The notes below the pieces were generated by a model. It did no database searches, was not told the DNA's origin, and was given only the letters and a program-made list of their open reading frames with translations. Of a stretch of 40,625 nt of DNA, positions 3,570 through 40,213 are shown one piece after another (the stretch's first letter is position 1; every line of letters starts with the position of its first letter). The DNA is taken from UHGV virus genome UHGV-0137877, one strand, 5' to 3'. Source of the DNA: a virus. The position numbers and the translations under genes were made by a program.

Positions 3570-3646
3570 TTACCGTTGAGGTAATAATTATGCTTATTTG
3601 GTTTGGTGTCAATAGATATGAGTTAAAAAAATTACCCGTAAGGTAA
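3570..3646. promoter_or_regulatory. Leftward early promoter with two operator sites (TTACC-N5-GGTAA at 3570-3584 and 3632-3646)
   Basis: Two perfect 15-bp palindromes flank a minus-strand TTGACA -35-like and ATAATT -10-like hexamer pair. Confidence 0.6.
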
Positions 3647-3703: not shown

Positions 3704-4288
3704 TTATTGTTTGCTTTTTTCGTTCTGGTTGATGACAAATTCAATGTAACTTTCGATCTTTGCTTTCTCGGTTTCGGGTAACAATGCGTAGCGTGAGCGG
3801 TCATAGTTGATAGTCGCAGGGTCGTGCGGGTGAATCAGTAGTTCATATCCGTGACGCCCGAATGCGGATGCAACATTCTCCAGGGTGGAAATGGAAACGC
3901 TGACCTCATTGTTTAACAGGCGGCTGATTGTCACCTGGGCGACGCCGGATGCGCGGTGAAGTTTTCCCTGTGTTGAAAGGTCGCGGCTTTCGCTCATCCA
4001 GCGTTCCAGGTTGTGAGCCGCCAGCTGACCAATGTCGCTTGGGCCGACAGGCTGAAAACCTTCCTGAGAAAGCGAGCGATCGATATCAAGCCAGTTACGG
4101 GGTTTATTGGCGGCAGCTTCAATTTTTCGCGCAACCTGGTCGCCGATAACCTTCTTGCCAAGAGCCCAGCGGTTTACCAGATTTGCCTGAGTTCCAAGTT
4201 TTTCTGCCATCCGCGTCTGAACACCATTGAATTCACGGTCGATCAAGTCGTTGAGATTTTGCCTGCGGACGTCCTGGATACTTTTCAT
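3704..4288 (-). CDS. Prophage repressor (CI-like), two HTH domains, no S24 peptidase domain
   Basis: 194 aa; N-terminal HTH (QTRMAEKLGTQANLVNRWALGKK) and a second HTH-like segment (ASGVAQVTISRLLNNEVSVSISTLENVA); divergent from the cro-like gene. Confidence 0.7.
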   Translation of the reverse strand: MKSIQDVRRQNLNDLIDREFNGVQTRMAEKLGTQANLVNRWALGKKVIGDQVARKIEAAANKPRNWLDIDRSLSQEGFQPVGPSDIGQLAAHNLERWMSESRDLSTQGKLHRASGVAQVTISRLLNNEVSVSISTLENVASAFGRHGYELLIHPHDPATINYDRSRYALLPETEKAKIESYIEFVINQNEKSKQ

Positions 4289-4343: not shown

Positions 4344-4406
4344 TTACCCAACAGGTAAATGCACCTCATAGGTAACTATCCTTGATTTTTGTTACCTTAT
4401 GGGTGA
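4344..4406. promoter_or_regulatory. Tripartite operator between repressor and cro-like genes
   Basis: TTACC-caaca-GGTAA (4344-4358), gcACC-tcata-GGTAA (4361-4375), TTACC-ttatg-GGTgA (4392-4406). Confidence 0.6.
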
Positions 4407-4728: not shown

Positions 4729-4743
4729 GTACCTCAAAGGTAA
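4729..4743. promoter_or_regulatory. Operator site (gTACC-tcaaa-GGTAA) after the cro terminator
   Basis: 15-bp palindrome matching the operator family in 9 of 10 fixed positions. Confidence 0.5.
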
Positions 4744-6630: not shown

Positions 6631-6707
6631 TTACCTATCAGGTAACAAAATATTCTAAACTCTATTGATTTCGTGTCTTATGTGGTTTTTAATTACCTTA
6701 GAGGTAA
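6631..6707. promoter_or_regulatory. Promoter region with two operator sites (6631-6645, 6693-6707) and an ATGTGGTT element (6680-6687)
   Basis: TTACC-tatca-GGTAA and TTACC-ttaga-GGTAA; TTGATT -35-like (6665-6670) and TTTAAT -10-like (6688-6693); second site overlaps the RBS of the 6711 gene. Confidence 0.55.
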
Positions 6708-11445: not shown

Positions 11446-11519
11446 ATACTGCCGCCAACTATGGCGGCTTTATTTTGCATGGTACTATTACCACAACGGT
11501 AACTATTACCACGGTGGTT

Positions 11520-12116
11520 ATGATGCCTGCTGAACCTAAAACCTATAAACGCAAATCAACGCAATTTAAGCCGCTCACAGCAATGCAGGAGGCTTATTGC
11601 CAGTCATACATCAAAACGCCTGAAAACCAGACTCAGGCAGCGATTAACGCAGGATTCTCCCCAAATACAGCGGCAGTTAAAGCCAGTGTCATGATGCGCG
11701 ATGAACGCATTCAAAAACGGATTGCCGAGTTGATGGAGGAGCGCAACAAACGAATGCGCGTCAGTGCTGATTACGTTCTCATGCGCCTGGTGGAGATCGA
11801 CCAGATGGACGTGATCGACATCCTCAACGACGATGGGAGCCTTAAGCCAATCCGCGAGTGGCCGAAAATCTGGCGCACTACGCTTAGTGGCTTTGATCTG
11901 TCATCGACCATCATGAACATGAACGAGGATTCGATAGAGACAATCCTCAAAAAAATTAAATGGCCTGACAAGGTGAAGAACCTCGAACTGATTGGTAAGC
12001 ACGTCGACGTCAACGCATTCAAAGAACGCCTGGATGTTAATGTGAATGTGACAATTGCTGATCGCATAGCGGCAGCCAGGAAGAGACTGAAAGAACGTCA
12101 GGATGGCAATCAGTGA
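11520..12116 (+). CDS. Terminase small subunit
   Basis: ORF track 11442..12116; preferred ATG 11520; LTAMQEAYCQSYIKTPENQTQAAINAGFSPNTAAVKAS fits the small-terminase pattern; directly upstream of the large subunit. Confidence 0.6.
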   Translation: MMPAEPKTYKRKSTQFKPLTAMQEAYCQSYIKTPENQTQAAINAGFSPNTAAVKASVMMRDERIQKRIAELMEERNKRMRVSADYVLMRLVEIDQMDVIDILNDDGSLKPIREWPKIWRTTLSGFDLSSTIMNMNEDSIETILKKIKWPDKVKNLELIGKHVDVNAFKERLDVNVNVTIADRIAAARKRLKERQDGNQ

Positions 12117-14257: not shown

Positions 14258-14334
14258 TGGCGTGGCATGCAGGATTCGAACCTGCGACCAACCGCTTAGA
14301 AGGCGGTTGCTCTGTCCAACTGAGCTAATGCCAC
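14258..14334 (-). tRNA. tRNA-Arg (anticodon UCU)
   Basis: 77-nt cloverleaf folded by hand: 7-bp acceptor stem, D-arm GCTC/GAGC, anticodon stem ACCGC/GCGGT with loop CTTCTAA, T-arm GCAGG-TTCGAAT-CCTGC, discriminator G, encoded CCA. Confidence 0.9.
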
Positions 14335-14656: not shown

Positions 14657-14734
14657 TTACCTGAAAGGTAATAATTAACGCGTTAAATGTCAACCTTCTA
14701 CGATAAATAAATCATATGTGGTTAAATTGGTAAT
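14657..14734. promoter_or_regulatory. Late-operon promoter region: operator (14657-14671), ATGTGGTT (14716-14723), GGTAAT (14729-14734)
   Basis: Perfect TTACC-tgaaa-GGTAA, then the same ATGTGGTT-N5-GGTAA arrangement seen at 33323-33340. Confidence 0.55.
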
Positions 14735-27930: not shown

Positions 27931-30405
27931 ATGAGACAGGAATGTATACAAGCGGTCCAGCAGGCGGCGCAGCGCACGTTAACGGCGCGAGAAATACAGA
28001 ACATTGAAGACCGCATTTATCGCAATATGCGCTCCATTGCTCGTGATGACCCTATGTCGTGGCGACAACTTTCCGAGTCAGAGCGGCTGTATCGTGCAGC
28101 ACAATTGGCATCTGAAGAATTACAGCGAGAAGCGGCATTAAAGAAACGTCGTGTGGCTCTTACTATAGCCGCACGTCAGAGATTGGATAAATTTATCAAT
28201 AGCTATCAAGGGGCTGATGGGAAACTTGGCGCTCTTAACCGTACTATTGCTTTTAATGCAGACGGTAAATCGAATTTCCTCTCTGTTGAGTCCAGAACAA
28301 AAGCCACTCGTGATTATGCATTGAGTCAATTGCAGGAGGCATTCGAAGCAGTTGATCCTCGCTTTTTTGGCCTGTTTGAAGATGAAGCGGGCGTGCGTGA
28401 CCTGGTATATGAAATGCGAGGGCAAAATACTGGCAATGCTAAAGCAAGAAAAGGTGCTAAGGCGTGGAGAGAAGTGACAGATCTACTCCGCCGCCGGTTT
28501 AATGATGCTGGTGGGGACATTGGCTATCTCGAAAACTGGGGGATCCCTCAACATCATTCTATGGAAAAGGTTGGGGCGGTATCAAAAGATAAATGGGTTA
28601 GCGATGTTATAGGTAAGCTGGATCGCAAATATTATACCCGAGCCGATGGACAACTGATGAACGATGCCGAGTTGTCTGCATTTCTTGGAGAGGCTTATAA
28701 CACGATCGCTACTGGTGGGCTGAATAAGCTTACTGATACCGGAATGCGAATTTCCGGCGCACGTGCTAACCGTGGTAATGCATCACGACAGATACATTTC
28801 AAAGATGCAGATTCCTATCTGCAATATCAGCAACTTTATGGCGATCGCTCTCTATGGGAAATCATGGTCGGTCACCTGGAAGGTATCAGTAAAGATATTG
28901 CACTGGTGGAAACATATGGCCCAAACCCCGATCATGTTTTCCGCTCCCTTCTTGATCTGGTTAAGGCAGAAACGGCAACAGCTAACCCGAGTAAAACCGG
29001 TAAAGTCGAGCGGCTGGCGAACAACACAGAGAATCTGTACAACTTTATTTCTGGAAAGACACAGCCTGTAGCGAATCCGCACATCGCGCGATGGTCTGAC
29101 AATATCCGCAACTGGCTGGTTGCCAGCAGACTCGGATCCGCGTTGCTGTCATCGTTCTCTGATCTTGGAACCATGTATCTGTCTGCGAAGGTTACCAACC
29201 TTCCAATGAACCAGTTATTCCGCAACCAGCTTGAAGCTATGGACCCAACGAACCGTACAGAACTTGCGCGGGCGCGCCGCGCTGGTCTGGCGATGGAATC
29301 TCTACTTGGCAGCGTTAACCGCTGGGCGATGGATAATATGGGGCCGTCAGTGTCTCGTTGGGCGGCAACGGCCGTAATGCGTGCCAGTGGGCTTACAGCA
29401 TGGTCAGATGCGCACAAGCGCGCCTATGGCGTAACCATGATGGGAAGCCTGGGAGAAGTAGTGTCACGGACACCAGACCTTCGTAGCCTCGATGACTCTG
29501 ATTTTCGTATCCTGAAAAGCAAAGGGATTACTGACACAGACTGGAGCGTATGGAAGCTGGCGCAACAGGAGGACTGGGGGAACGGTAATAATACGATGCT
29601 GACACCGGAAAGCATTATGCGTATCCCTGATTCAGCAGTTAAACATCTTGGTGAGCCTGAACGAGTGAAATTTGAGGCAATGCGTAAACTGCTCGGTGCC
29701 GTAACTGAAGAAGTTGATATGGCTGTTATTACACCGGGAGCACGTGAGCAACTGATAACCGGTTCTGGTATTCAGCGTGGAACATGGAAAGGTGAATTAA
29801 CGAGAAGTGTTTTCCTGTTTAAATCGTTCCCTATCTCGGTTGTTATGCGTCACTGGTCACGCGCTATGGGTATGCCGTCTGCTGGTGGGCGTGCGGCATA
29901 TATTGCGACGTTTATTGCCAGTACGACCATTCTTGGCGCTTTGTCGCAGCAACTTAACGACCTTGCGTCTGGTCGTAATCCTCGAGAGATGACAGGAGAA
30001 GGTGCCGCAAAATTCTGGCTTGGTGCTCTACTGAAAGGTGGTGGCCTTGGCCTTTACGGTGACTTTTTATTGTCAGATCACACTAGGTACGGAAGCGGCG
30101 CGCTGGCGTCGATGCTTGGCCCGGTAGCTGGTCTGGTTGATGACGTAGTGAAGATTGCTCAGGGCATACCGTTAAATGCTGTGGAAGGGAAGAGTGAGCA
30201 GACTGGTGGTGATCTGGTGAAGCTGGGGAAAGGTTTGATGCCAGGTGCGAATCTCTGGTACTTAAAGGCGGCTCTCGATCATATGATCTTTAACCAGATG
30301 CAGGAGTATTTTTCACCAGGCTATTTGCGTAAAATGGAGCAACGTTCGAAGAAAGAGTTTAATCAGACATACTGGTGGCGACCTCAGGATGTCACTCCGC
30401 AATAA
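27931..30405 (+). CDS. Internal virion/ejection protein (gp16-like, second part)
   Basis: 824 aa; GAGAGG RBS; last large gene of the ejection block. Confidence 0.45.
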   Translation: MRQECIQAVQQAAQRTLTAREIQNIEDRIYRNMRSIARDDPMSWRQLSESERLYRAAQLASEELQREAALKKRRVALTIAARQRLDKFINSYQGADGKLGALNRTIAFNADGKSNFLSVESRTKATRDYALSQLQEAFEAVDPRFFGLFEDEAGVRDLVYEMRGQNTGNAKARKGAKAWREVTDLLRRRFNDAGGDIGYLENWGIPQHHSMEKVGAVSKDKWVSDVIGKLDRKYYTRADGQLMNDAELSAFLGEAYNTIATGGLNKLTDTGMRISGARANRGNASRQIHFKDADSYLQYQQLYGDRSLWEIMVGHLEGISKDIALVETYGPNPDHVFRSLLDLVKAETATANPSKTGKVERLANNTENLYNFISGKTQPVANPHIARWSDNIRNWLVASRLGSALLSSFSDLGTMYLSAKVTNLPMNQLFRNQLEAMDPTNRTELARARRAGLAMESLLGSVNRWAMDNMGPSVSRWAATAVMRASGLTAWSDAHKRAYGVTMMGSLGEVVSRTPDLRSLDDSDFRILKSKGITDTDWSVWKLAQQEDWGNGNNTMLTPESIMRIPDSAVKHLGEPERVKFEAMRKLLGAVTEEVDMAVITPGAREQLITGSGIQRGTWKGELTRSVFLFKSFPISVVMRHWSRAMGMPSAGGRAAYIATFIASTTILGALSQQLNDLASGRNPREMTGEGAAKFWLGALLKGGGLGLYGDFLLSDHTRYGSGALASMLGPVAGLVDDVVKIAQGIPLNAVEGKSEQTGGDLVKLGKGLMPGANLWYLKAALDHMIFNQMQEYFSPGYLRKMEQRSKKEFNQTYWWRPQDVTPQ

Positions 30406-30414
30406 GGAAGTGTT

Positions 30415-30588
30415 GTGTTTTTAATTATTTTGAGTGTGATAATTTCTGGTGGGTTGTTATTTATTGACCGCTACAAATATTTTCTTAACCCTCAGACTCA
30501 AGCTATTTGCTGGTTCATCTTTGTTGTGCAGGGAATAGTTCTTGTTGCAAGCCTTATTGAGGGGAGGCCTCTGATTTTTACTGGGTAA
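30415..30588 (+). CDS. Small hydrophobic protein (57 aa, GTG start; not in ORF track)
   Basis: GTG at 30415 just after AAGGAAG; two predicted transmembrane segments; open frame to TAA at 30586-30588. Confidence 0.25.
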   Translation: MFLIILSVIISGGLLFIDRYKYFLNPQTQAICWFIFVVQGIVLVASLIEGRPLIFTG

Positions 30589-30600
30589 ATAGGTGACTAC

Positions 30601-30897
30601 ATGCAAGCGATAGGATTCATTGTTTATATCGTCGTTGGCCTTTTTCAGTTGGCAGCAATTATGGCTGGGCTTGAATCATGGTGGGGATTGCACTGGATAA
30701 TTGCAGCCCCCATTGCTTTCATCGTGAGCTATATTCCATTTGTTGGAGCGATTGTTGGTATGGTTGGCGCTGTGGATGTATGGCGGTGGGAGTGGTGGCA
30801 GGCTGGCCTTCTCTTCTTTGGTGGGATCATCTTTGCTATTGTCTGCGGTGGAATGTCATCATTTTTCGAATGGCTATCATTCAGAAAAGGGACGTGA
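30601..30897 (+). CDS. Trp-rich integral membrane protein
   Basis: 98 aa; AGGTGA RBS; three or four hydrophobic helices; last gene of the late operon. Confidence 0.55.
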   Translation: MQAIGFIVYIVVGLFQLAAIMAGLESWWGLHWIIAAPIAFIVSYIPFVGAIVGMVGAVDVWRWEWWQAGLLFFGGIIFAIVCGGMSSFFEWLSFRKGT

Positions 30898-30905
30898 CAT
30901 GTCAC

Positions 30906-30930
30906 AGGCCGCTTTCGCGGCCTTGTTTTT
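30906..30930 (+). terminator. Rho-independent terminator ending the late operon
   Basis: AGGCCGC-tttc-GCGGCCT followed by TGTTTTT. Confidence 0.65.
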
Positions 30931-30970
30931 AACGAATGCCACCGCCACCCGGGCGGGAATCCGCAGACAC

Positions 30971-30992
30971 AAAAAAGCCCGCAGAGCGGGCT
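30971..30992 (-). terminator. Rho-independent terminator after the DUF2335-like gene
   Basis: AGCCCGC-aga-GCGGGCT followed by a U6 run on the minus strand; overlaps the stop codon. Confidence 0.6.
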
Positions 30993-31540
30993 TACTTTTC
31001 TTCAGGTTTATTGTCTTCAGATTTCTTCTTGATGCTTGGTTTTTGTCTAAGAACGAAAATACCAGCCACTGCAACAACTGTACCGATCACTGTGCCTGCT
31101 AGAACTTCATGACCTGTTAAACCTAATAATGTTGCACAAGCTACTGTAAAAATAGTTGCACTCAGGCCAAACCACTGCCCACGTTTATCTCTATTAATAG
31201 CCCCGTCAAGTGCCTTTTCCTCCATTTTCTGGCGGTGAGCAAACTCCTTCTCCGTCAGCTGGAAGATGCGTTCGGGGGCATCAGGTAAAATATCCTGATA
31301 CCCGCGAAGCAGATAGGGGGGAGGAAGCGGACCCTGAAACGCATGGTGAGCGACAACTATCTCCTGAATTTCAGGGCGATCAAGAACTCTTGTGAAGGCA
31401 TCTGGGTGTTGAATGATCTCGTTACTTAGCCCTTCCTCAACTTCCTCGAACTCAGTTTCTTCGTTATCACTTGGTTGCCCAATAGATTTTTGCATATTTG
31501 TCGAAGGACATTCCTTTAGCTTCTGGTTTTCCTCTTGCAT
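30992..31540 (-). CDS. DUF2335-like membrane protein
   Basis: 182 aa (167 if it starts at the internal ATG 31495); acidic N-terminus, PPPYLL...ERIFQLTEKEFAHRQ core, two C-terminal transmembrane helices, Lys-rich tail. Confidence 0.55.
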   Translation of the reverse strand: MQEENQKLKECPSTNMQKSIGQPSDNEETEFEEVEEGLSNEIIQHPDAFTRVLDRPEIQEIVVAHHAFQGPLPPPYLLRGYQDILPDAPERIFQLTEKEFAHRQKMEEKALDGAINRDKRGQWFGLSATIFTVACATLLGLTGHEVLAGTVIGTVVAVAGIFVLRQKPSIKKKSEDNKPEEK

Positions 31541-31793
31541 TTGAGTTTTTCCCTGTCACTATTGCCCATTTTCCGCCAGCAGGCGCTGCAATTTTTTTTC
31601 CGTTCTTTACTATATATTCAGCATAAACACGATTTTCTGACCGTCTGAGATCGTCTCCGACCATATTCATGTCTCTTGATATAACTTTGACGACAGAGTC
31701 TCTGTTTAAAGCCTTGGCATAGTTGGAGCCAGGAACGATACCCAAAGGGGTGCCAGACTCTATAGCCAGCTCCTTGACATATCTTCTGCTCAT
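31467..31793 (-). CDS. Small basic protein, overlaps the DUF2335-like gene
   Basis: 108 aa from ATG 31793 (GAGG RBS 6 nt upstream); overlaps the next ORF by 29-74 nt in another frame; own promoter with operator. Confidence 0.4.
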   Translation of the reverse strand: MSRRYVKELAIESGTPLGIVPGSNYAKALNRDSVVKVISRDMNMVGDDLRRSENRVYAEYIVKNGKKIAAPAGGKWAIVTGKNSNARGKPEAKGMSFDKYAKIYWATK

Positions 31794-31813
31794 ATGAACC
31801 TCAACCAATCGAC

Positions 31814-31847
31814 TTTACCAATCGGGTAATTTTAAACATGAGTATAA
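31814..31847 (-). promoter_or_regulatory. Promoter with operator site for the 108-aa/DUF2335-like pair
   Basis: Perfect TTACC-aatcg-GGTAA (31814-31828) 14 bp downstream of a minus-strand TATACT -10-like hexamer (31842-31847). Confidence 0.5.
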
Positions 31848-31914
31848 TGCTTTTAACTGCAACGAGTGTAAACAATTATTGATAATTGTAGGCACATCCC
31901 TGTGCCGCCGCCCG

Positions 31915-32625
31915 TCAGAAGAACCCTGCCTTGTCGTTGATGTACTCCGCGTGAGTCTGGATATCACGCAGGCATTTGCTCACACCAACGATGTAGCAGA
32001 ACATGCTGGTCAGCTCCGCCGCCGCGCCCGATACATCGTGCCCGTCTTCCTGCAACTGGTTCAGCAAATTCATCAGCAGTGAGTTCTCCGTCAGGCCGAG
32101 AACACCAGACGGCGAATGAATCAGGCTACGGTAGCCGGGCTTCAGTGGGGCGCTGTAGGTTTTGTTCTCTATCTTCATTGCCTGCATCACTGCTGATGCT
32201 GTGGCGTTGGCTACCTGGTCGGCAACCATCTTTATGCGTTCTTCCTGCGGGAGCGAGTTTTTAATGTAACTTCCGGTGCGGCGGATCTGAGGAAGAACCT
32301 CACCTGTAACCCATTTACGAAAGCGGTAGGGGATAGTGCCTGGTGTCACCGCATCGCGGCAGCGGAGGATCAGTGTGTAGAGGCCTGACTCGGAGATGAT
32401 GTTGATCTCTTTTACTCGGCTGTCAAAAATTGCACGATGTTCATGCCCTATGTTGAACATAGACCTTTCATCATCATCCAGTTTTTCAAGTGCTTGGGTG
32501 ACGTTTTGGATACGCAGCGCACTACAAACGTCTTGGGCTACAAACCATGGTTGGCCATCGATAATGATGGAACGGATAGGGTTAACAGATTCAAATTTGA
32601 AGATGGCAGTTTGAGCATTAGCCAT
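31915..32625 (-). CDS. Antirepressor (BRO-N domain plus Ant-type C-terminal domain)
   Basis: ORF track 31915..32640; preferred ATG 32625 after GGAGAT; N-terminal FKFESVNPIRSIIIDGQPWFVAQDVCSAL is a classic BRO-N start. Confidence 0.8.
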   Translation of the reverse strand: MANAQTAIFKFESVNPIRSIIIDGQPWFVAQDVCSALRIQNVTQALEKLDDDERSMFNIGHEHRAIFDSRVKEINIISESGLYTLILRCRDAVTPGTIPYRFRKWVTGEVLPQIRRTGSYIKNSLPQEERIKMVADQVANATASAVMQAMKIENKTYSAPLKPGYRSLIHSPSGVLGLTENSLLMNLLNQLQEDGHDVSGAAAELTSMFCYIVGVSKCLRDIQTHAEYINDKAGFF

Positions 32626-32781
32626 GGTGGTTATCTCCACTTAGTGATTTTAATCACCACCGCAACGCCAATTACTGGTGGTGAACTGGACAAGGTTGGC
32701 GTACCGGCCTAAGTGGTACCGGCGTCCTTTCGGACCCCTGCCCAGCCCACCATAATTCGGATATAGCTGTGCTTAACGCAT

Positions 32782-32803
32782 AAAAAAACCACGTCTGGCG
32801 TGG
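32782..32803 (-). terminator. Rho-independent terminator between the two antirepressor genes
   Basis: CCACG-ccaga-CGTGG followed by a U7 run on the minus strand. Confidence 0.6.
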
Positions 32804-32894
32804 TATGCGCCACTTAGTAACTCGGGACGCCAATCCCGGCACTGGATTTTGCCAGTGCTCAATTACTATGGCACAAGAGGAGTGCGATGTAAAT

Positions 32895-32909
32895 TTACCG
32901 CAAAGGTAA
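32895..32909. promoter_or_regulatory. Operator site (TTACC-gcaaa-GGTAA) downstream of the small antirepressor gene
   Basis: Perfect 15-bp palindrome of the operator family. Confidence 0.5.
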
Positions 32910-32940
32910 ATATAAGCACTCCACTTGGTAATTGCAAACC

Positions 32941-33198
32941 TTATCTGGTTTGTTTTCGTAATTGTTCGGCACAATAGTCGAGATGTGTTTGCAGATCCTG
33001 CATAGACATCTGTGAGCTGGTGACGTAGTTAATCAGTGCAGTCAGTTCGGCAAGTGGGCCATCGACATTAAATCCATCCTTATCGAGATCCCGGAGTAAT
33101 TTCATCAAGTGCGATCCCTCCACCAGTGACCTGACGCCTCCCGGCGTGTGAATCCTTTCGGTAAATCCGTCTTCCAGTGGATAGTGATACTGCTGCAT
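32941..33198 (-). CDS. Small antirepressor-like protein (Ant C-terminal domain only)
   Basis: ORF track 32941..33213; preferred ATG 33198 after GGAGAAG; roughly half its residues are identical to the C-terminal 85 residues of the 31915-32625 antirepressor (IHTPGGV...LMKLL..L...G..V.G..AELT...). Confidence 0.65.
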   Translation of the reverse strand: MQQYHYPLEDGFTERIHTPGGVRSLVEGSHLMKLLRDLDKDGFNVDGPLAELTALINYVTSSQMSMQDLQTHLDYCAEQLRKQTR

Positions 33199-33220
33199 CT
33201 TAATCTTCTCCATGCAATAA

Positions 33221-33275: not shown

Positions 33276-33347
33276 TTACCTGAAAGGTAATATCTATTCG
33301 TATTCACAGTCTTTCTATCCATATGTGGTTTTTCAGGTAATAGAATA
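33276..33347. promoter_or_regulatory. Tailspike promoter region: operator (33276-33290), ATGTGGTT (33323-33330), GGTAAT/TAGAAT -10-like
   Basis: Perfect TTACC-tgaaa-GGTAA; same layout as the 14657-14734 region. Confidence 0.55.
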
Positions 33348-33394: not shown

Positions 33395-36300
33395 ATGACG
33401 GTCTCAACCGAAGTTGACCACAACGAATACACAGGTAACGGCGTTACGACATCGTTTCCGTATACTTTTCGAATTTTCAGAAAATCAGACCTGGTTGTTC
33501 AGGTGTCTGACCTGAACGGGAACGTAACAGAATTGGTTCTGGATACCGGTTATACGGTAACTGGGGCGGGAACTTATAGTGGCGGTTCTGTGGTTCTTCC
33601 GTCGCCGCTTGCTACTGGATGGCGAATTACGATAGATCGTGTGCTTGATGTAGTGCAGGAGACAGACCTTCGCAATCAGGGAAAATTTTTCCCCGAAGTG
33701 CATGAAGATGCTTTTGACTACCTGACGATGCTGATCCAGCAATGTTTTGGGTGGTTCAGACGTGCATTGATGAAACCATCTTTGCTTGCAAAATATTACG
33801 ATGCAAAGCAAAACAAAATTTCTAACCTTGCAGATCCATCACTTGAACAGGACGCTGTAAATAATCGCTCAATGCGTAATTATGTCGATGCTGCAATCGC
33901 CGGGGTTGTTGGTGGTTTTGGTTGGTTTATTCAGTATGGTTCTGGGGCTGTGTACCGAACGTTCCAGGATAAAATGCGTGATGCTATTAGCCCCAAAGAT
34001 TTTGGAGCTGTTGGTGATGGTATAAATGACGATTCCACTGCAATAAGCGCGTGCCTTGAAGCCTCATCTCCAGGTTATAAAATTGACGGATTAGGGCTTA
34101 CTTTTAAAGTATCAACTCTTCCGGATGTCAGCCGATTTAAAAATGCTCGTTTTTTATTTGAGAGAATACCGGGTCAGCCTCTTTTTTATGCTTCTGAAGA
34201 TTTTATCCAGGGAGAGTTATTTAAAATTACAGATACACCGTGGTACAACGCCTGGACGCAGGATAAAACGTTTGTATATGACAATGTCATCTATGCGCCT
34301 TTTATGGCTGGAGACCGCCATGGTGTAAATAACCTCCATGTTGCATGGGTTCGCTCAGGAGATGACGGGAAGACCTGGACAACGCCGGAATGGCTTACAG
34401 ATTTACATGAAAACTATCCCACAGTTAACTATCACTGCATGAGTATGGGGGTTGTCAGAAATCGCCTTTTTGCTGTAATTGAGACGCGGACCGTGAGCGG
34501 AAATAAACTGCAGGTTGCAGAGTTGTGGGATCGCCCAATGAGTCGCAGCCTTCGCGTTTATGGTGGTATAACGAAAGCAGCAAATCAGCAAGTCGCTTAT
34601 ATTCGCATTACTGATCACGGATTATTTGCTGGTGATTTTGTCAACTTCTCAAACTCTGGTGTTACAGGTGTTACCGGGAATATGACGGTGACTACTGTTA
34701 TTGATAAAAATACTTTTACAGTTACGACGCAAAATACCCAGGATGTGGATCAGAATAACGAGGGTAGATACTGGAGTTTTGGTACATCATTTCACTCGTC
34801 ACCATGGAGAAAAACCAGTCTTGGAACTATTCCTTCTTTTGTTGACGGAAGCACTCCTGTTACTGAGATTCACAGTTTTGCGACGATTAGCGATAACAGT
34901 TTTGCTGTTGGCTACCATAATGGTGATATTGGTCCACGCGAGCTTGGGATACTCTATTTCTCTGATGCTTTCGGTTCTCCTGGTAGCTTTGTTCGCAGAC
35001 GCATACCTGCAGAATATGAGGCGAATGCATCTGAGCCATGTGTAAAATATTATGATGGCATTCTGTATCTGACGACCAGGGGGACATTAAGTACTCAACC
35101 CGGTAGTTCATTGCACAGAAGCTCTGATTTAGGTACATCATGGAATTCTCTTCGCTTCCCAAATAATGTTCATCACTCAAACCTTCCTTTTGCCAAAGTT
35201 GGCGATGAGCTGATTATTTTTGGCAGTGAGCGCGCATTTGGTGAGTGGGAAGGAGGAGAACCTGATAACCGTTATGCAGGAAATTATCCAAGAACATTTA
35301 TGACCAGAGTTAACGTCAATGAGTGGAGTCTGGATAATGTAGAGTGGGTTAATGTTACTGATCAGATTTATCAGGGCGGAATAGTTAACTCTGCGGTTGG
35401 TGTTGGTTCAGTTTGTATCAAAGACAACTGGCTGTACTACATTTTCGGTGGGGAAGACTTTCTAAACCCATGGAGCATAGGGGATAACAACAGAAAATAT
35501 CCTTATGTTCACGATGGTCACCCGGCTGATTTGTATTGTTTCAGGGTGAAAATTAAACAGGAAGAATTTGTTTCAAGGGATTTTGTCTACGGAGCCACTC
35601 CTAACAGAACGCTTCCTACTTTTATGTCGACGTCAGGCGTGAGGACGGTTCCTGTACCCGTTGATTTCACAGATGATGTTGCCGTCCAGTCACTGACTGT
35701 CCATGCAGGTACATCAGGACAAGTTCGCGCGGAAGTCAAACTTGAGGGTAATTACGCCATTATTGCGAAGAAAGTACCGTCTGATGATGTTACCGCTCAG
35801 AGATTAATCGTTAGCGGAGGTGAAACAACGTCTTCAGCAGATGGTGCAATGATAACGTTGCATGGTTCCGGAAGCAGTACTCCACGTCGCGCGGTATATA
35901 ACGCACTCGAACATCTTTTTGAGAACGGAGATGTTAAACCTTATCTTGATAATGTAAATGCTCTTGGTGGTCCGGGAAACAGGTTCTCGACAGTTTATCT
36001 TGGCTCCAATCCTGTGGTTACCAGTGACGGAACATTAAAGACAGAGCCGGTCTCTCCTGACGAAGCATTGCTGGATGCCTGGGGTGACGTCAGGTATATC
36101 GCTTATAAATGGCTGAACGCTGTCGCTATAAAGGGGGAAGAAGGGGCGAGGATACATCATGGTGTAATCGCGCAGCAACTTCGTGATGTTCTTATTTCTC
36201 ACGGACTCATGGAAGAAGAAAGCACAACATGCCGCTATGCCTTTCTTTGCTATGACGATTATCCCGCAGTATATGATGACGTCATTACTGGCCAAAGGGA

Positions 36301-36514
36301 AATGCCGCTGACTGATAATGACGGGAGCATCATTGTTGATGAGGATGATAATCCAGTGATGGTAATGGAAGACATCATTGAGCGCGTTGAAATAACGCCA
36401 GCAGGATCTAGATGGGGGGTCAGACCTGATCTCTTATTCTATATCGAGGCGGCATGGCAGCGCAGAGAAATGGATAAGATAAAAGAGCGGATTCAGTCTC
36501 TGGAAGAACGTTAA
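33395..36514 (+). CDS. Tailspike: endosialidase with gp17-like N-terminal anchor and C-terminal self-cleaving chaperone domain
   Basis: 1039 aa; N-terminus resembles the particle-binding domain of T7 gp17; two Asp-box motifs (SGDDGKTW, SSDLGTSW); C-terminal NPVVTSDGTLKTEP...HHGVIAQQLRDV resembles S74-type chaperone domains. Confidence 0.75.
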   Translation: MTVSTEVDHNEYTGNGVTTSFPYTFRIFRKSDLVVQVSDLNGNVTELVLDTGYTVTGAGTYSGGSVVLPSPLATGWRITIDRVLDVVQETDLRNQGKFFPEVHEDAFDYLTMLIQQCFGWFRRALMKPSLLAKYYDAKQNKISNLADPSLEQDAVNNRSMRNYVDAAIAGVVGGFGWFIQYGSGAVYRTFQDKMRDAISPKDFGAVGDGINDDSTAISACLEASSPGYKIDGLGLTFKVSTLPDVSRFKNARFLFERIPGQPLFYASEDFIQGELFKITDTPWYNAWTQDKTFVYDNVIYAPFMAGDRHGVNNLHVAWVRSGDDGKTWTTPEWLTDLHENYPTVNYHCMSMGVVRNRLFAVIETRTVSGNKLQVAELWDRPMSRSLRVYGGITKAANQQVAYIRITDHGLFAGDFVNFSNSGVTGVTGNMTVTTVIDKNTFTVTTQNTQDVDQNNEGRYWSFGTSFHSSPWRKTSLGTIPSFVDGSTPVTEIHSFATISDNSFAVGYHNGDIGPRELGILYFSDAFGSPGSFVRRRIPAEYEANASEPCVKYYDGILYLTTRGTLSTQPGSSLHRSSDLGTSWNSLRFPNNVHHSNLPFAKVGDELIIFGSERAFGEWEGGEPDNRYAGNYPRTFMTRVNVNEWSLDNVEWVNVTDQIYQGGIVNSAVGVGSVCIKDNWLYYIFGGEDFLNPWSIGDNNRKYPYVHDGHPADLYCFRVKIKQEEFVSRDFVYGATPNRTLPTFMSTSGVRTVPVPVDFTDDVAVQSLTVHAGTSGQVRAEVKLEGNYAIIAKKVPSDDVTAQRLIVSGGETTSSADGAMITLHGSGSSTPRRAVYNALEHLFENGDVKPYLDNVNALGGPGNRFSTVYLGSNPVVTSDGTLKTEPVSPDEALLDAWGDVRYIAYKWLNAVAIKGEEGARIHHGVIAQQLRDVLISHGLMEEESTTCRYAFLCYDDYPAVYDDVITGQREMPLTDNDGSIIVDEDDNPVMVMEDIIERVEITPAGSRWGVRPDLLFYIEAAWQRREMDKIKERIQSLEER

Positions 36515-38829: not shown

Positions 38830-39369
38830 TTAATTAAACCAGCTGTCCGATTTGTTCTCTTCTGCTTTGCCCACGCTTTTCATCAGATCGCGACCGCCTT
38901 CAGTCATATTTCTGTTTGCGTCAGCTTCAGATTGCACCACATCGGTTTGCGCAGCTTTGTGCTTCAGTTCCTGATCGATAAATTCGTTTTCGCGCTTGAC
39001 GCGGGCTTCTTCTTTCGCCAGCGCCAGTTTTTGTTTCTGAATCTCTAAGCTACGTAGCTCATCTTCATAACTTTGATCGCGTTTTTTGTCCGCAGTGGCT
39101 TCGGCGTCCAGTTTATCCTGACGAGCTTTCTTATTCGCTGCTGCCGTTGCCGCTCTTTTATTAGCCGCGGCCTGGGCGTTTGCGCGACGTTGCTTCTCTT
39201 GCTGGATTTCCCTGTTGCGCTCCGCGACCCATTCGTCATGCTGCCTTTGCTCTTCATTTTTACCTTGCTGTTCCGCTTCTGCGACAGCCGAGAGTTGATC
39301 CTGCAATGATGAGGCGATAGCCGGATAGCTTAAGGAGGCTAAGATGGCGCAAAGAAAAACTTTCTTCAT
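38830..39369 (-). CDS. Secreted Lys/Ala/Glu-rich coiled-coil protein
   Basis: 179 aa; signal peptide MKKVFLCAILASLSYPAIA; strong AGGAGG RBS; 15-nt gap from the upstream gene. Confidence 0.55.
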   Translation of the reverse strand: MKKVFLCAILASLSYPAIASSLQDQLSAVAEAEQQGKNEEQRQHDEWVAERNREIQQEKQRRANAQAAANKRAATAAANKKARQDKLDAEATADKKRDQSYEDELRSLEIQKQKLALAKEEARVKRENEFIDQELKHKAAQTDVVQSEADANRNMTEGGRDLMKSVGKAEENKSDSWFN

Positions 39370-39384
39370 GACTCCTCCTGATTA

Positions 39385-39900
39385 TTAGCTCTTTTCAGGA
39401 CATTTGGTATTTGGCTGAATACGCGTTTCGTTATACGTCGTGGTAATAACAACGGCTAAACCTGTCGTAAACTGGCACTCTTTACCCACCTGGGTGGAGG
39501 TATACACTTTGGTGCCTTCCTTATATGTTAAAGAAACACCTTCCACTAAGGTTTTATCATTCACCATCGAACCCGCTGCCGCGCCTACAGCTCCGCCGCC
39601 AACTGCACCTGCCGTCGTTCCGGAATTGCTGCCAGACCCGACGTTGTGGCCGATAACACCGCCAGCGACAGCGCCAATAAGCGCGCCGAAGGCTTGTGCG
39701 TTCCGTTTATTTTGGGCGTTGTCTACGGCAACTTTTGCGGGAAGAATGGAAATAATATTAACGGTTTTAGTTTCTTGTTTGGTATTCAGTTGATCGGTTT
39801 GATAAACATCGGCGGCATGATCATCAGCATTTGACTGGCATCCTGCCAGAGTGAATGACGCTAACATTGCCACAGGCAGAAGACATTTTTTAAATTTCAT
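39385..39900 (-). CDS. Glycine-zipper lipoprotein (SlyB/YcfJ-like)
   Basis: ORF track 39385..39903; preferred ATG 39900; lipobox LAGC; Gly-zipper segment GALIGAVAGGVIGHNVGSGS...AVGGGAVGAAAG. Confidence 0.65.
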   Translation of the reverse strand: MKFKKCLLPVAMLASFTLAGCQSNADDHAADVYQTDQLNTKQETKTVNIISILPAKVAVDNAQNKRNAQAFGALIGAVAGGVIGHNVGSGSNSGTTAGAVGGGAVGAAAGSMVNDKTLVEGVSLTYKEGTKVYTSTQVGKECQFTTGLAVVITTTYNETRIQPNTKCPEKS

Positions 39901-40213
39901 CACTATTCCTTGTTATACACATTACGAAAAATGAGACATTTAAGATCATCAAAAGAGGAAAGTAAATGTATTGCGTATAAAGGAATAGATTAAATTTATT
40001 AAAATTCATGCGGGAAATAATTTATAAAAATACATCATCACAACATATGTATTAATGATGTATTTATTTCGCAGCCGAACAGGATGAACTTCAGTCAGAA
40101 CAAAGACGTAAAATTTAAGATGAAAGAATATCTGCCGCTTTGATAATCTCAAAGAGCAAAAGCATCCGACAGCGAGGTGCCGTTATGTTCTGTGAGAGTG
40201 GAGAAGGTAACCG

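Follow-up and report, generated by a model that had tools for sequence, protein, structure and literature searches.

What do two overlapping genes of no recognised function do in a temperate phage that carries them on what looks like a unit of their own? The question is raised by a locus on the minus strand of UHGV-0137877, a viral genome of 40,625 nucleotides (hereafter the window, meaning the whole stretch of DNA that was analysed), in which the gene for a small basic protein runs out of frame into the start of a gene for a membrane protein with a DUF2335 domain. The first important finding of this study is that the small protein and the DUF2335 protein form a conserved, near-obligate pair across bacterial phyla. 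While the genes of the pair were already present in databases as "hypothetical protein", the existence of a conserved, overlapping and often unannotated partner of DUF2335 across phyla is new, in that no description of it was found in the libraries and literature searched. In the window, which comes from an epsilon15/phiV10-like temperate phage, the pair looks like an accessory ("moron") operon complete in itself. The two genes and their parts are these:

31467-31793, minus strand: small partner gene, from the ATG at 31793 to the stop at 31467, encoding a basic protein of 108 residues with an isoelectric point (pI) of 10.0
31592-31599, minus strand: A8 homopolymer within the small open reading frame (ORF), codons G-K-K-I
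30992-31540, minus strand: DUF2335 membrane-protein gene, from the ATG at 31540 to the TAA at 30992, encoding 182 residues that match PF10097
31175-31324, minus strand: DUF2335 domain, residues 73-122, motif GPLPPP..L..Y ... E.E..HR...E
31046-31174, minus strand: C-terminal two-helix membrane hairpin, residues ~123-141 and 145-165

The picture given by the initial annotation—a tightly coupled pair of a soluble and a membrane protein, the former basic and 108 residues long, the latter DUF2335-like and starting out of frame within its partner—agrees with the ORFs as we read them. The downstream gene is a clear member of its family, with the full domain and both C-terminal helices: it matches PF10097 ("predicted membrane protein") at 57.2 bits against a gathering cut-off of 25 (E = 1.6e-15, profile positions 1-50 of 50), and also phrog_3996 ("membrane protein"). 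Residues G70, P71, L72, P73, P75, Y81, H102, R120, Q122 and G125 are invariant in the alignment of homologues, and the N-terminal ~120 residues, which carry the invariant GPLPxP...Y...HR...RGQ, are acidic (pI 4.75). The two C-terminal transmembrane helices that had been predicted are found as hydrophobic helices (residues 123-141 and 145-165) in the AlphaFold2 model and in all aligned homologues, forming a hairpin that is rich in small residues and flanked on both sides by basic ones. Overall, the model has a low predicted local distance difference test score (pLDDT 62.5), with the helices spanning residues 88-141 and 145-165 at ~72-84.

Two in-frame start codons come into consideration. The ATG at 31540, which overlaps the small ORF by 74 nt, is common to most DUF2335 homologues of 179-183 residues (73-100% identity), several of which have a threonine in place of Met16. 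The second ATG, at 31495, would yield 167 residues and an overlap of 29 nt; it is the start used in the GenBank records of phages EC.W1-9 and vB_EcoP_ZX5 (hereafter ZX5), and more distant relatives begin only at the equivalent of Met16, with an overlap of 32 nt. We consider 31540 the likelier start. An AGGGA lies 9 nt before 31540 and no suitable Shine-Dalgarno sequence precedes 31495, neither context being strong, so that synthesis of the DUF2335 protein probably depends on translation of its partner and is probably sub-stoichiometric to it.

The small ORF, whose ATG is preceded by a GAGG Shine-Dalgarno sequence 5 nt upstream, encodes a protein with neither a transmembrane segment nor a signal peptide, which belongs to phrog_10654 (function unknown). 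Its conserved core corresponds to residues ~9-52; the basic extension of ~55 residues that follows in the window, with the tail FDKYAKIYWATK, is present in the enterobacterial clade and in locus L071. Could this ORF be no gene at all, but simply a stretch of the DUF2335 gene's 5' leader that happens to lack stop codons? The absence of a gene call in many source annotations (L011 and L013-L022, at ~3742-4077 in each), the lack of a curated family and a poor structure model (pLDDT 55) would fit such a view, which is nevertheless almost certainly wrong. The ORF is intact, full-length and directly upstream of DUF2335 in all 22 of the loci collected first (48-100% identity by tblastn), its frame is open in every locus at 34-100% identity, its Shine-Dalgarno sequence is good, and two protein motifs, described below, are common to it across phyla. 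Both frames are under purifying selection, with pairwise ratios of nonsynonymous to synonymous substitution rates (dN/dS) of 0.11-0.43 for the small ORF outside the overlap and 0.02-0.10 for DUF2335. Moreover, the C-terminal tail F-D/E-K/R-Y-A-x-L-Y-x-x-T-K is kept even where the tyrosine codon is TAC instead of TAT and the overlapping ATG is therefore lost, which means that it is selected as protein and not as start-codon context. Presumably, the 74-nt overlap is the reason why gene callers skip the small partner, and genomes in which it goes uncalled show DUF2335 as a solitary gene. The small protein also evolves about five times faster at the amino-acid level than DUF2335 (dN of 0.41 vs 0.08).

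Some public sequences depart from this arrangement. Variants consistent with A9 and A6 at the A8 homopolymer occur in public assemblies (P0005 and P0006), where the shifted frame gives proteins of 91-92 residues that retain the conserved core and lose the basic extension; these could be true polymorphism or assembly errors. In P0004 (168 residues, from a 1.4-kb Logan contig), the small protein is fused to the N terminus of DUF2335. We rejected a programmed frameshift joining both frames, because this fusion arises only if one base is deleted from the A5 run at ~31546-31550 (+1), one lysine codon being lost as well, and because it is seen on that single contig; we take P0004 to be a mutation or an error.

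How far the pairing extends was a point raised by the initial annotation, and homologues of the two genes do co-occur in other genomes, well beyond the 22 initial loci. An exhaustive search with the small protein returned few true homologues, all of them small (P0038, P0044, P0050 and P0052); P0044, P0050 and P0052, which are 34-41% identical to it, are each followed by a DUF2335 gene with a 32-nt overlap, and one of these loci lies after the Q antiterminator of a lambdoid Rahnella prophage. The set was enlarged by 94 DUF2335 loci, of which 80 came from IMG/VR and 14 from genomes that represent species in diverse phyla. We then ran an iterated profile of the small protein against all loci together (6,691 ORFs) and counted over the 113 loci with sufficient upstream sequence. 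The profile identified an adjacent upstream partner in 97 of these 113, or 33 of the 46 clusters at 70% identity, and among the 6,691 ORFs it matched exactly one that was not adjacent and none elsewhere. The partners found in this way have 60-110 residues, lie directly upstream of DUF2335 and overlap it, and the positive clusters span enterobacterial prophages, Prevotellaceae, Planctomycetota and gut-virome contigs. Eight more clusters have the pattern DW..VG.D in an overlapping upstream ORF and three more have looser variants recognised by eye; the partner is absent only from an actinobacterial cluster (L114/L116, with a helix-turn-helix (HTH) protein upstream) and from L036. What the partners share is a core of ~55 residues with two motifs, G.GS.L[DN]I.P followed by DW..VG.D[MI]..A, to which the small protein of the window aligns with residues 12-21 (ESGTPLGIVP) and 41-52 (DMNMVGDDLRRS). 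In most lineages the core is not basic. Neither Pfam nor NCBIfam has a model of the partner, whose members are spread in PHROGs over families of unknown function.

Beyond these two genes, nothing in the neighbourhood is constant. No third partner recurs among the genes flanking 44 distant representative loci, and the neighbours vary widely, from HTH regulators, integrases and terminases (small and large) to peptidoglycan-binding proteins, Rha and two proteins with a Panacea antitoxin domain, which fits a stand-alone module sitting in variable regions. The two Panacea (SocA-like) ORFs, identified by eye as those immediately downstream of the pair (L074, 4568-5173; L122, 4369-4752) and each followed by another small ORF, look like parts of separate adjacent toxin-antitoxin pairs in the same variable spot. 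The pair is mostly phage-borne, with 105 confirmed relatives in IMG/VR against 14 loci in a set with one genome per species and 7 among 72,556 plasmids. Named phage isolates with DUF2335 infect Klebsiella, Leptospira, Streptococcus, Ralstonia and Arthrobacter, the annotation being at most "membrane protein". Apart from these relatives, the small protein matched giant repeat proteins of 2,121-3,245 residues over 13-17 stretches, which we rejected as homologues. Two of them (P0039 and P0042) show scattered domains only, with no single stretch passing, and P0045 (838 residues) consists of bacterial Ig/cadherin repeats; these matches are treated as summed weak matches to a short strand-turn-strand segment, GKKIAAPAGGKWAIVTG, and not as homology.

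That neither protein has a recognised function, as initially noted, is borne out by searches in Pfam, NCBIfam, PHROGs, PADLOC and the PDB and by a fold search. PF10097 is a family without an assigned function, and its obligate small partner is outside the Pfam model and any curated model searched. The small protein gave no match in Pfam, NCBIfam or PADLOC, whether it was searched singly or through 13 members of its family (E up to 10), and DUF2335 gave only a chance-level match (E = 0.039) to a methyltransferase model in PADLOC-DB v2. Sequence-profile searches of the PDB were empty or at chance level for both proteins, and Foldseek against the PDB returned one meaningless match (E = 3.2). There was likewise no similarity to characterised exclusion proteins of the SieA, Imm or gp15 types, PHROGs and Pfam giving only "membrane protein" or DUF assignments. 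The literature on PF10097 and COG5346 was uninformative, a Dickeya mutant list coming without a mechanism. Mentions of a "DUF2335 phospholipase" in papers on type VI and type IV secretion were rejected as relevant, since they concern secreted lipase effectors; we take them to mean DUF2235/Tle1.

The earlier suggestion of an abortive-infection, exclusion or toxin-antitoxin module draws on layout, and it is at this level that the pair can be compared with known systems. Two-component prophage defences that combine a cytoplasmic and a membrane protein include RexA/RexB of lambda and gp30/gp31 of mycobacteriophage Butters. Like these and like toxin-antitoxin systems, the pair has a small upstream gene coupled to a membrane-protein gene, a faster-evolving upstream partner and mobility among phages; it differs from them in that there is no similarity of sequence or fold, that it is rare on plasmids and that it is probably repressed in the lysogen. 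At the same map position, P22-like phages encode the superinfection-exclusion membrane protein SieA (its gene being placed between the ejection genes and immI), which works without a partner and is made in the lysogen. The pair resembles it in containing a (predicted) inner-membrane protein gene in an island between ejection and tailspike genes, beside antirepressor genes, but has no homology to it. Finally, morons are autonomous promoter-gene-terminator inserts in lambdoid and P22-like phages, the classical ones being expressed from the repressed prophage. Their hallmarks recur here, in a predicted promoter and terminator of the pair's own, a location between conserved virion genes, and absence from close relatives combined with presence in unrelated backbones. 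The difference is that the promoter of the pair carries an operator-like site, which argues against expression from a repressed prophage.

The initial annotation had given the two genes their own promoter and operator, and we located a predicted promoter, an operator-like palindrome and a terminator for the unit:

31844-31872, minus strand: predicted sigma-70-like promoter, TTTACA-17-CATTAT (31872-31844), from a consensus scan
31829-31856, minus strand: alternative predicted promoter, TTAAAA-16-TAAAAT (31856-31829), from the same scan
31815-31829, unstranded: perfect palindrome TTACC-N5-GGTAA, operator-like, with the sequence TTACCCGATTGGTAA
30975-30993, unstranded: predicted intrinsic terminator, hairpin AAGCCCGC-TCT-GCGGGCTT plus a T-run, from a terminator scan

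Two details of the earlier description needed correction. The operator placed at 31814-31828 is indeed a perfect palindrome but lies one base further on, and the TATACT proposed as a -10 element is present (31841-31846), but the consensus scan prefers the two promoters listed. The second of these shares a base with the palindrome, which begins at the final T of the -10-like TAAAAT. Such abutment is frequent, TAAAAT running directly into TACC in the window and TAAGAT, TATTAT, TACATT or TAATCT taking the same place in relatives. Read on the minus strand, the site (AATTACCCGATTGGTAAAG) fits ATTACC-N5-GGTAAT with a perfect core and the outer A/T matched on one side only. The promoter region is conserved in relatives from other contexts (L015, L029 and L054), and the terminator hairpin, which is G+C-rich and bidirectional, overlaps the TAA stop of DUF2335. 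The boxB element of lambda has the same geometry as the palindrome, a 5-bp stem and a 5-nt loop; a role as an RNA hairpin was rejected on account of a weak stem and an unconserved loop. A recombination boundary was rejected as well, because homology between contexts reaches ~60 nt further upstream.

Within the genus, the palindrome is by no means peculiar to the pair. TTACC-N5-GGTAA has 13 matches with at most one mismatch in the window, where 0.6 are expected, and the sites head most operons:

3570-3584, 3632-3646, 4344-4358, 4392-4406: sites flanking the HTH repressor gene (3704-4288) on both sides
4729-4743, 6631-6645, 6693-6707, 11488-11502, 11506-11520, 14657-14671: further sites, placed after a cro-like gene, before a DUF1064 gene, at the small-terminase gene and before the portal region
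31815-31829, 32895-32909, 33276-33290: sites in the island of the pair, one per cassette

In phiV10, 8 exact and 6 one-mismatch sites occupy equivalent places, many of them near annotated terminators and often just downstream. The reference record of epsilon15 annotates seven ATTACC-N5-GGTAAT sites as "protein_bind: repressor, lysogeny", and its genome holds eleven exact matches. The repressor of phiV10 is reported to be shared with ZX5 (PMC9782041). The site at 31815-31829 thus fits the epsilon15/phiV10 repressor-operator system, overlapping its promoter as other sites in the window do, and binding of the repressor is predicted. The palindrome is found upstream of the pair in nearly all enterobacterial loci, and where the pair lies in prophage remnants or at sites flanked by insertion sequences (IS), it is the only copy within 8 kb.

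The lambdoid phages complicate this picture. We assembled 42 loci (L123-L164, 574 kb) with the same Q antiterminator as the Rahnella prophage. The palindrome occurs in exactly 3 of them, which are also the only ones to have a DUF2335 pair, and in each it sits shortly before the pair:

10980 in L124: lambdoid palindrome site
8935 in L131: lambdoid palindrome site
833 in L144: lambdoid palindrome site

One of these three variants has a DUF2335 protein 39% identical to that of the window and a partner of 71 residues. No homologue of the epsilon15-type repressor of the window was detected in the lambdoid loci, including 10 kb upstream of Q in L124. Repressor control, as initially proposed, has partial support: the palindrome is the motif annotated as a repressor site in epsilon15, but lambdoid phages carry it only beside the pair. 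Its presence there may reflect self-regulation, a host or widespread prophage factor, or repeated recent export of diverged cassettes from an epsilon15-like pool.

Self-regulation is the form that the palindrome would take in a classical toxin-antitoxin (addiction) system, with DUF2335 as the toxin and the small protein as an antitoxin that represses its own synthesis through this site. The gene order, overlap and coupling of two small, adjacent, co-transcribed genes are typical of such systems, as would be an upstream partner evolving some five times faster, and the pair has stayed intact in prophage remnants and at IS-flanked sites (L013, L015-18). The three lambdoid loci, with no epsilon15-type repressor detectable, also fit, and so do two distant pairs with striking, different and perfect palindromes at the same place (L077, 22 bp; L092, 18 bp); the upstream inverted repeats of distant pairs, however, show no general excess (p = 0.17). 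The same 15-bp motif is moreover annotated as a repressor site in epsilon15, and it stands at the head of many operons in that phage and in phiV10, both without the pair. In most lineages the putative antitoxin has a core that is not basic, and no DNA-binding family matches it. Together with the rarity of the pair on plasmids and the absence of any toxin-antitoxin match in PADLOC or Pfam, this makes an addiction system unlikely in our view.

The pair lies on the minus strand in an accessory island between the ejection-protein genes, which end at 30405, and the tailspike gene, as initially described. The other features of the island are:

30415-30588 and 30601-30897, plus strand: two small membrane ORFs, flanking the pair on one side, after the virion/ejection genes
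30929-30967, minus strand: 3' remnant of a 53-residue signal-peptide ORF, seen in two-piece alignments with a ~190-bp gap
31915-32640, minus strand: Bro-N antirepressor gene, flanking the pair on the other side
32941-33213, minus strand: 90-residue ORF, beside the tailspike gene
33395-36514: endosialidase tailspike gene, beyond the 90-residue ORF

The window as a whole is the genome of an epsilon15/phiV10-like (Uetakevirus) temperate phage, and the 1-kb region of the pair is 99% identical to the temperate E. coli podophages EC.W1-9 and ZX5, of the genus Uetakevirus. Both ORFs are labelled hypothetical in the GenBank records of these phages, and the ZX5 study treats them in the same way (PMC9782041). 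At least 80% of this region is found in 68 of 5,426 complete E. coli genomes, within prophages. The pair is absent at the equivalent map position of phiV10 and epsilon15, so it must be dispensable, including for the lytic cycle. It is seen in Uetakevirus-like prophages with many different tailspikes and also after the Q antiterminator of lambdoid phages.

Since the operator implies expression only when the repressor is missing, the pair might instead help the lytic cycle early after derepression, by modulating lysis timing in a holin- or antiholin-like manner, membrane energetics or DNA entry. Its hairpin, rich in small residues like those of oligomerising membrane proteins, would suit such a role, and some relatives adjoin peptidoglycan-binding (endolysin-like) or terminase genes. 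Yet the pair lies outside the phage's own lysis cassette, whose region is beyond the tailspike gene as annotated in phiV10 and epsilon15, and those two phages do without it; its position varies among phages, and neither protein matches a holin family in Pfam. A lytic helper is thus distinctly unlikely. The neighbouring antirepressors invite another thought, namely that the pair assists them in regulating the switch between lysis and lysogeny, for example by sequestering a regulator at the membrane. It shares the island and the operator type with the Bro-N antirepressor and a stand-alone copy of its C-terminal domain, and the ZX5 antirepressor of this island does influence the switch (PMC9782041). 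This we regard as very improbable, because elsewhere the pair occurs without antirepressor genes, in unrelated genome positions, and it has no recognisable domain for binding DNA or a repressor.

Several further observations concern the island and the rest of the window. The two small ORFs at 30415-30588 and 30601-30897 (plus strand) are very hydrophobic, follow the gene for a virion protein of 824 residues and are convergent with the pair; the one of 98 residues is phrog_3075 (function unknown) and has a sub-threshold holin-like match. The 53-residue ORF that follows the pair's terminator in relatives encodes a signal peptide and two cysteines (MKKAFAALFVLLSLVASTQAFAGRCQHD...) and has no Pfam match. 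It is intact in L003-L010 (4643-4804 in L003) and in the Rahnella loci L023 and L024 (4933-5094 in L023), and is conserved, at ~80% identity by eye, even in the lambdoid Rahnella context; in the window, ~190 bp including its 5' part are deleted and the 3' end alone is left. The 90-residue ORF at 32941-33213 is the stand-alone copy of the C-terminal domain of the Bro-N antirepressor and has its own operator at 33276, both ORFs matching phrog_450 and phrog_15539. Between the operator/promoter at ~32895-32938 and the Bro-N antirepressor gene, two Rfam families match above their gathering scores on the minus strand, C4 antisense RNA at 32674-32757 (66 bits) and the Hfq-binding RNA isrK at 32782-32858 (67 bits). 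This arrangement, which resembles c4-ant of phage P1 immI, suggests possible RNA-level control of the antirepressor. Elsewhere, a tRNA-Arg gene (anticodon TCT; 14258-14334, minus strand) lies upstream of the portal gene, and two accessory-looking genes near the end of the window (38830-39369 and 39385-39903, both minus strand) encode one DUF5384 protein and one glycine-zipper protein with a weak TraT-like similarity below the Pfam curated threshold.

What, then, is the pair for? Our tentative preference, held with somewhat less than even confidence, is an accessory role in conflict, by exclusion or abortive killing at the membrane, in which the small protein is the regulator or antidote. We favour it because the pair is dispensable, mobile between unrelated phages and confined to variable regions, with a faster-evolving partner and no need for a third gene. 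In the proposed sequence of events, the operon would be driven by a sigma-70-type promoter whose -10 element abuts the genus-typical ATTACC-N5-GGTAAT operator, and would stay silent in the lysogen and, like the neighbouring antirepressor cassettes, come on once the prophage is induced or a cell is infected. By its layout, the small cytoplasmic protein is translated first and DUF2335 is co-translated with it, the start of the second gene falling within the last part of the first. A C-terminal helical hairpin would hold the DUF2335 protein in the inner membrane and leave its conserved acidic N-terminal domain facing the cytoplasm; since basic residues flank both helices, the positive-inside rule would place both ends of the protein there (N-in/C-in). 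Having no membrane or signal segment, the small partner would act in the cytoplasm on the DUF2335 domain, probably by binding the N-terminal part of the protein and thereby controlling or neutralising it. Competing phages would be excluded or aborted with the membrane hairpin as the effector.

A number of points weigh against a conflict role of this kind. Neither protein has homology to a characterised exclusion, abortive-infection, toxin-antitoxin or holin protein in Pfam, NCBIfam, PHROGs, PADLOC or the PDB, and both AlphaFold2 models are of low confidence (pLDDT 55 and 62.5). With the prophage repressor on the operator, the operon would be off in the lysogen, so that protection of the lysogen would need leaky or induced expression; at the same time, it is less than certain that the main repressor of the phage governs the operon in all contexts. 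ZX5 lysogeny was without effect on the host phenotypes tested, which did not include phage resistance or these ORFs (PMC9782041).

A bolder version, which we hold to be doubtful, is that the pair represents an unrecognised cross-phylum and mostly phage-borne two-component system, whose membrane-hairpin effector would act in conflicts between phages, or between phage and host, under the control of a cytoplasmic sensor or antidote. In Enterobacterales, a cis-regulatory palindrome belonging to the cassette itself might mimic or share the epsilon15-type operator, wiring expression of the system into the immunity circuits of resident phages or interfering with them. Across epsilon15-like genomes the same 15-bp site is an annotated operator, whereas lambdoid phages have it with this cassette alone; an explanation could reveal how a mobile cassette retains or borrows its regulatory inputs on passing from one phage backbone to another. 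If the pair is a functional two-protein system, a widespread DUF would gain an obligate partner and a testable job, and a small gene often dropped by annotation pipelines owing to its overlap would be exposed. It would also add a candidate to the temperate-phage accessory genes that act at the membrane against competitors or hosts.

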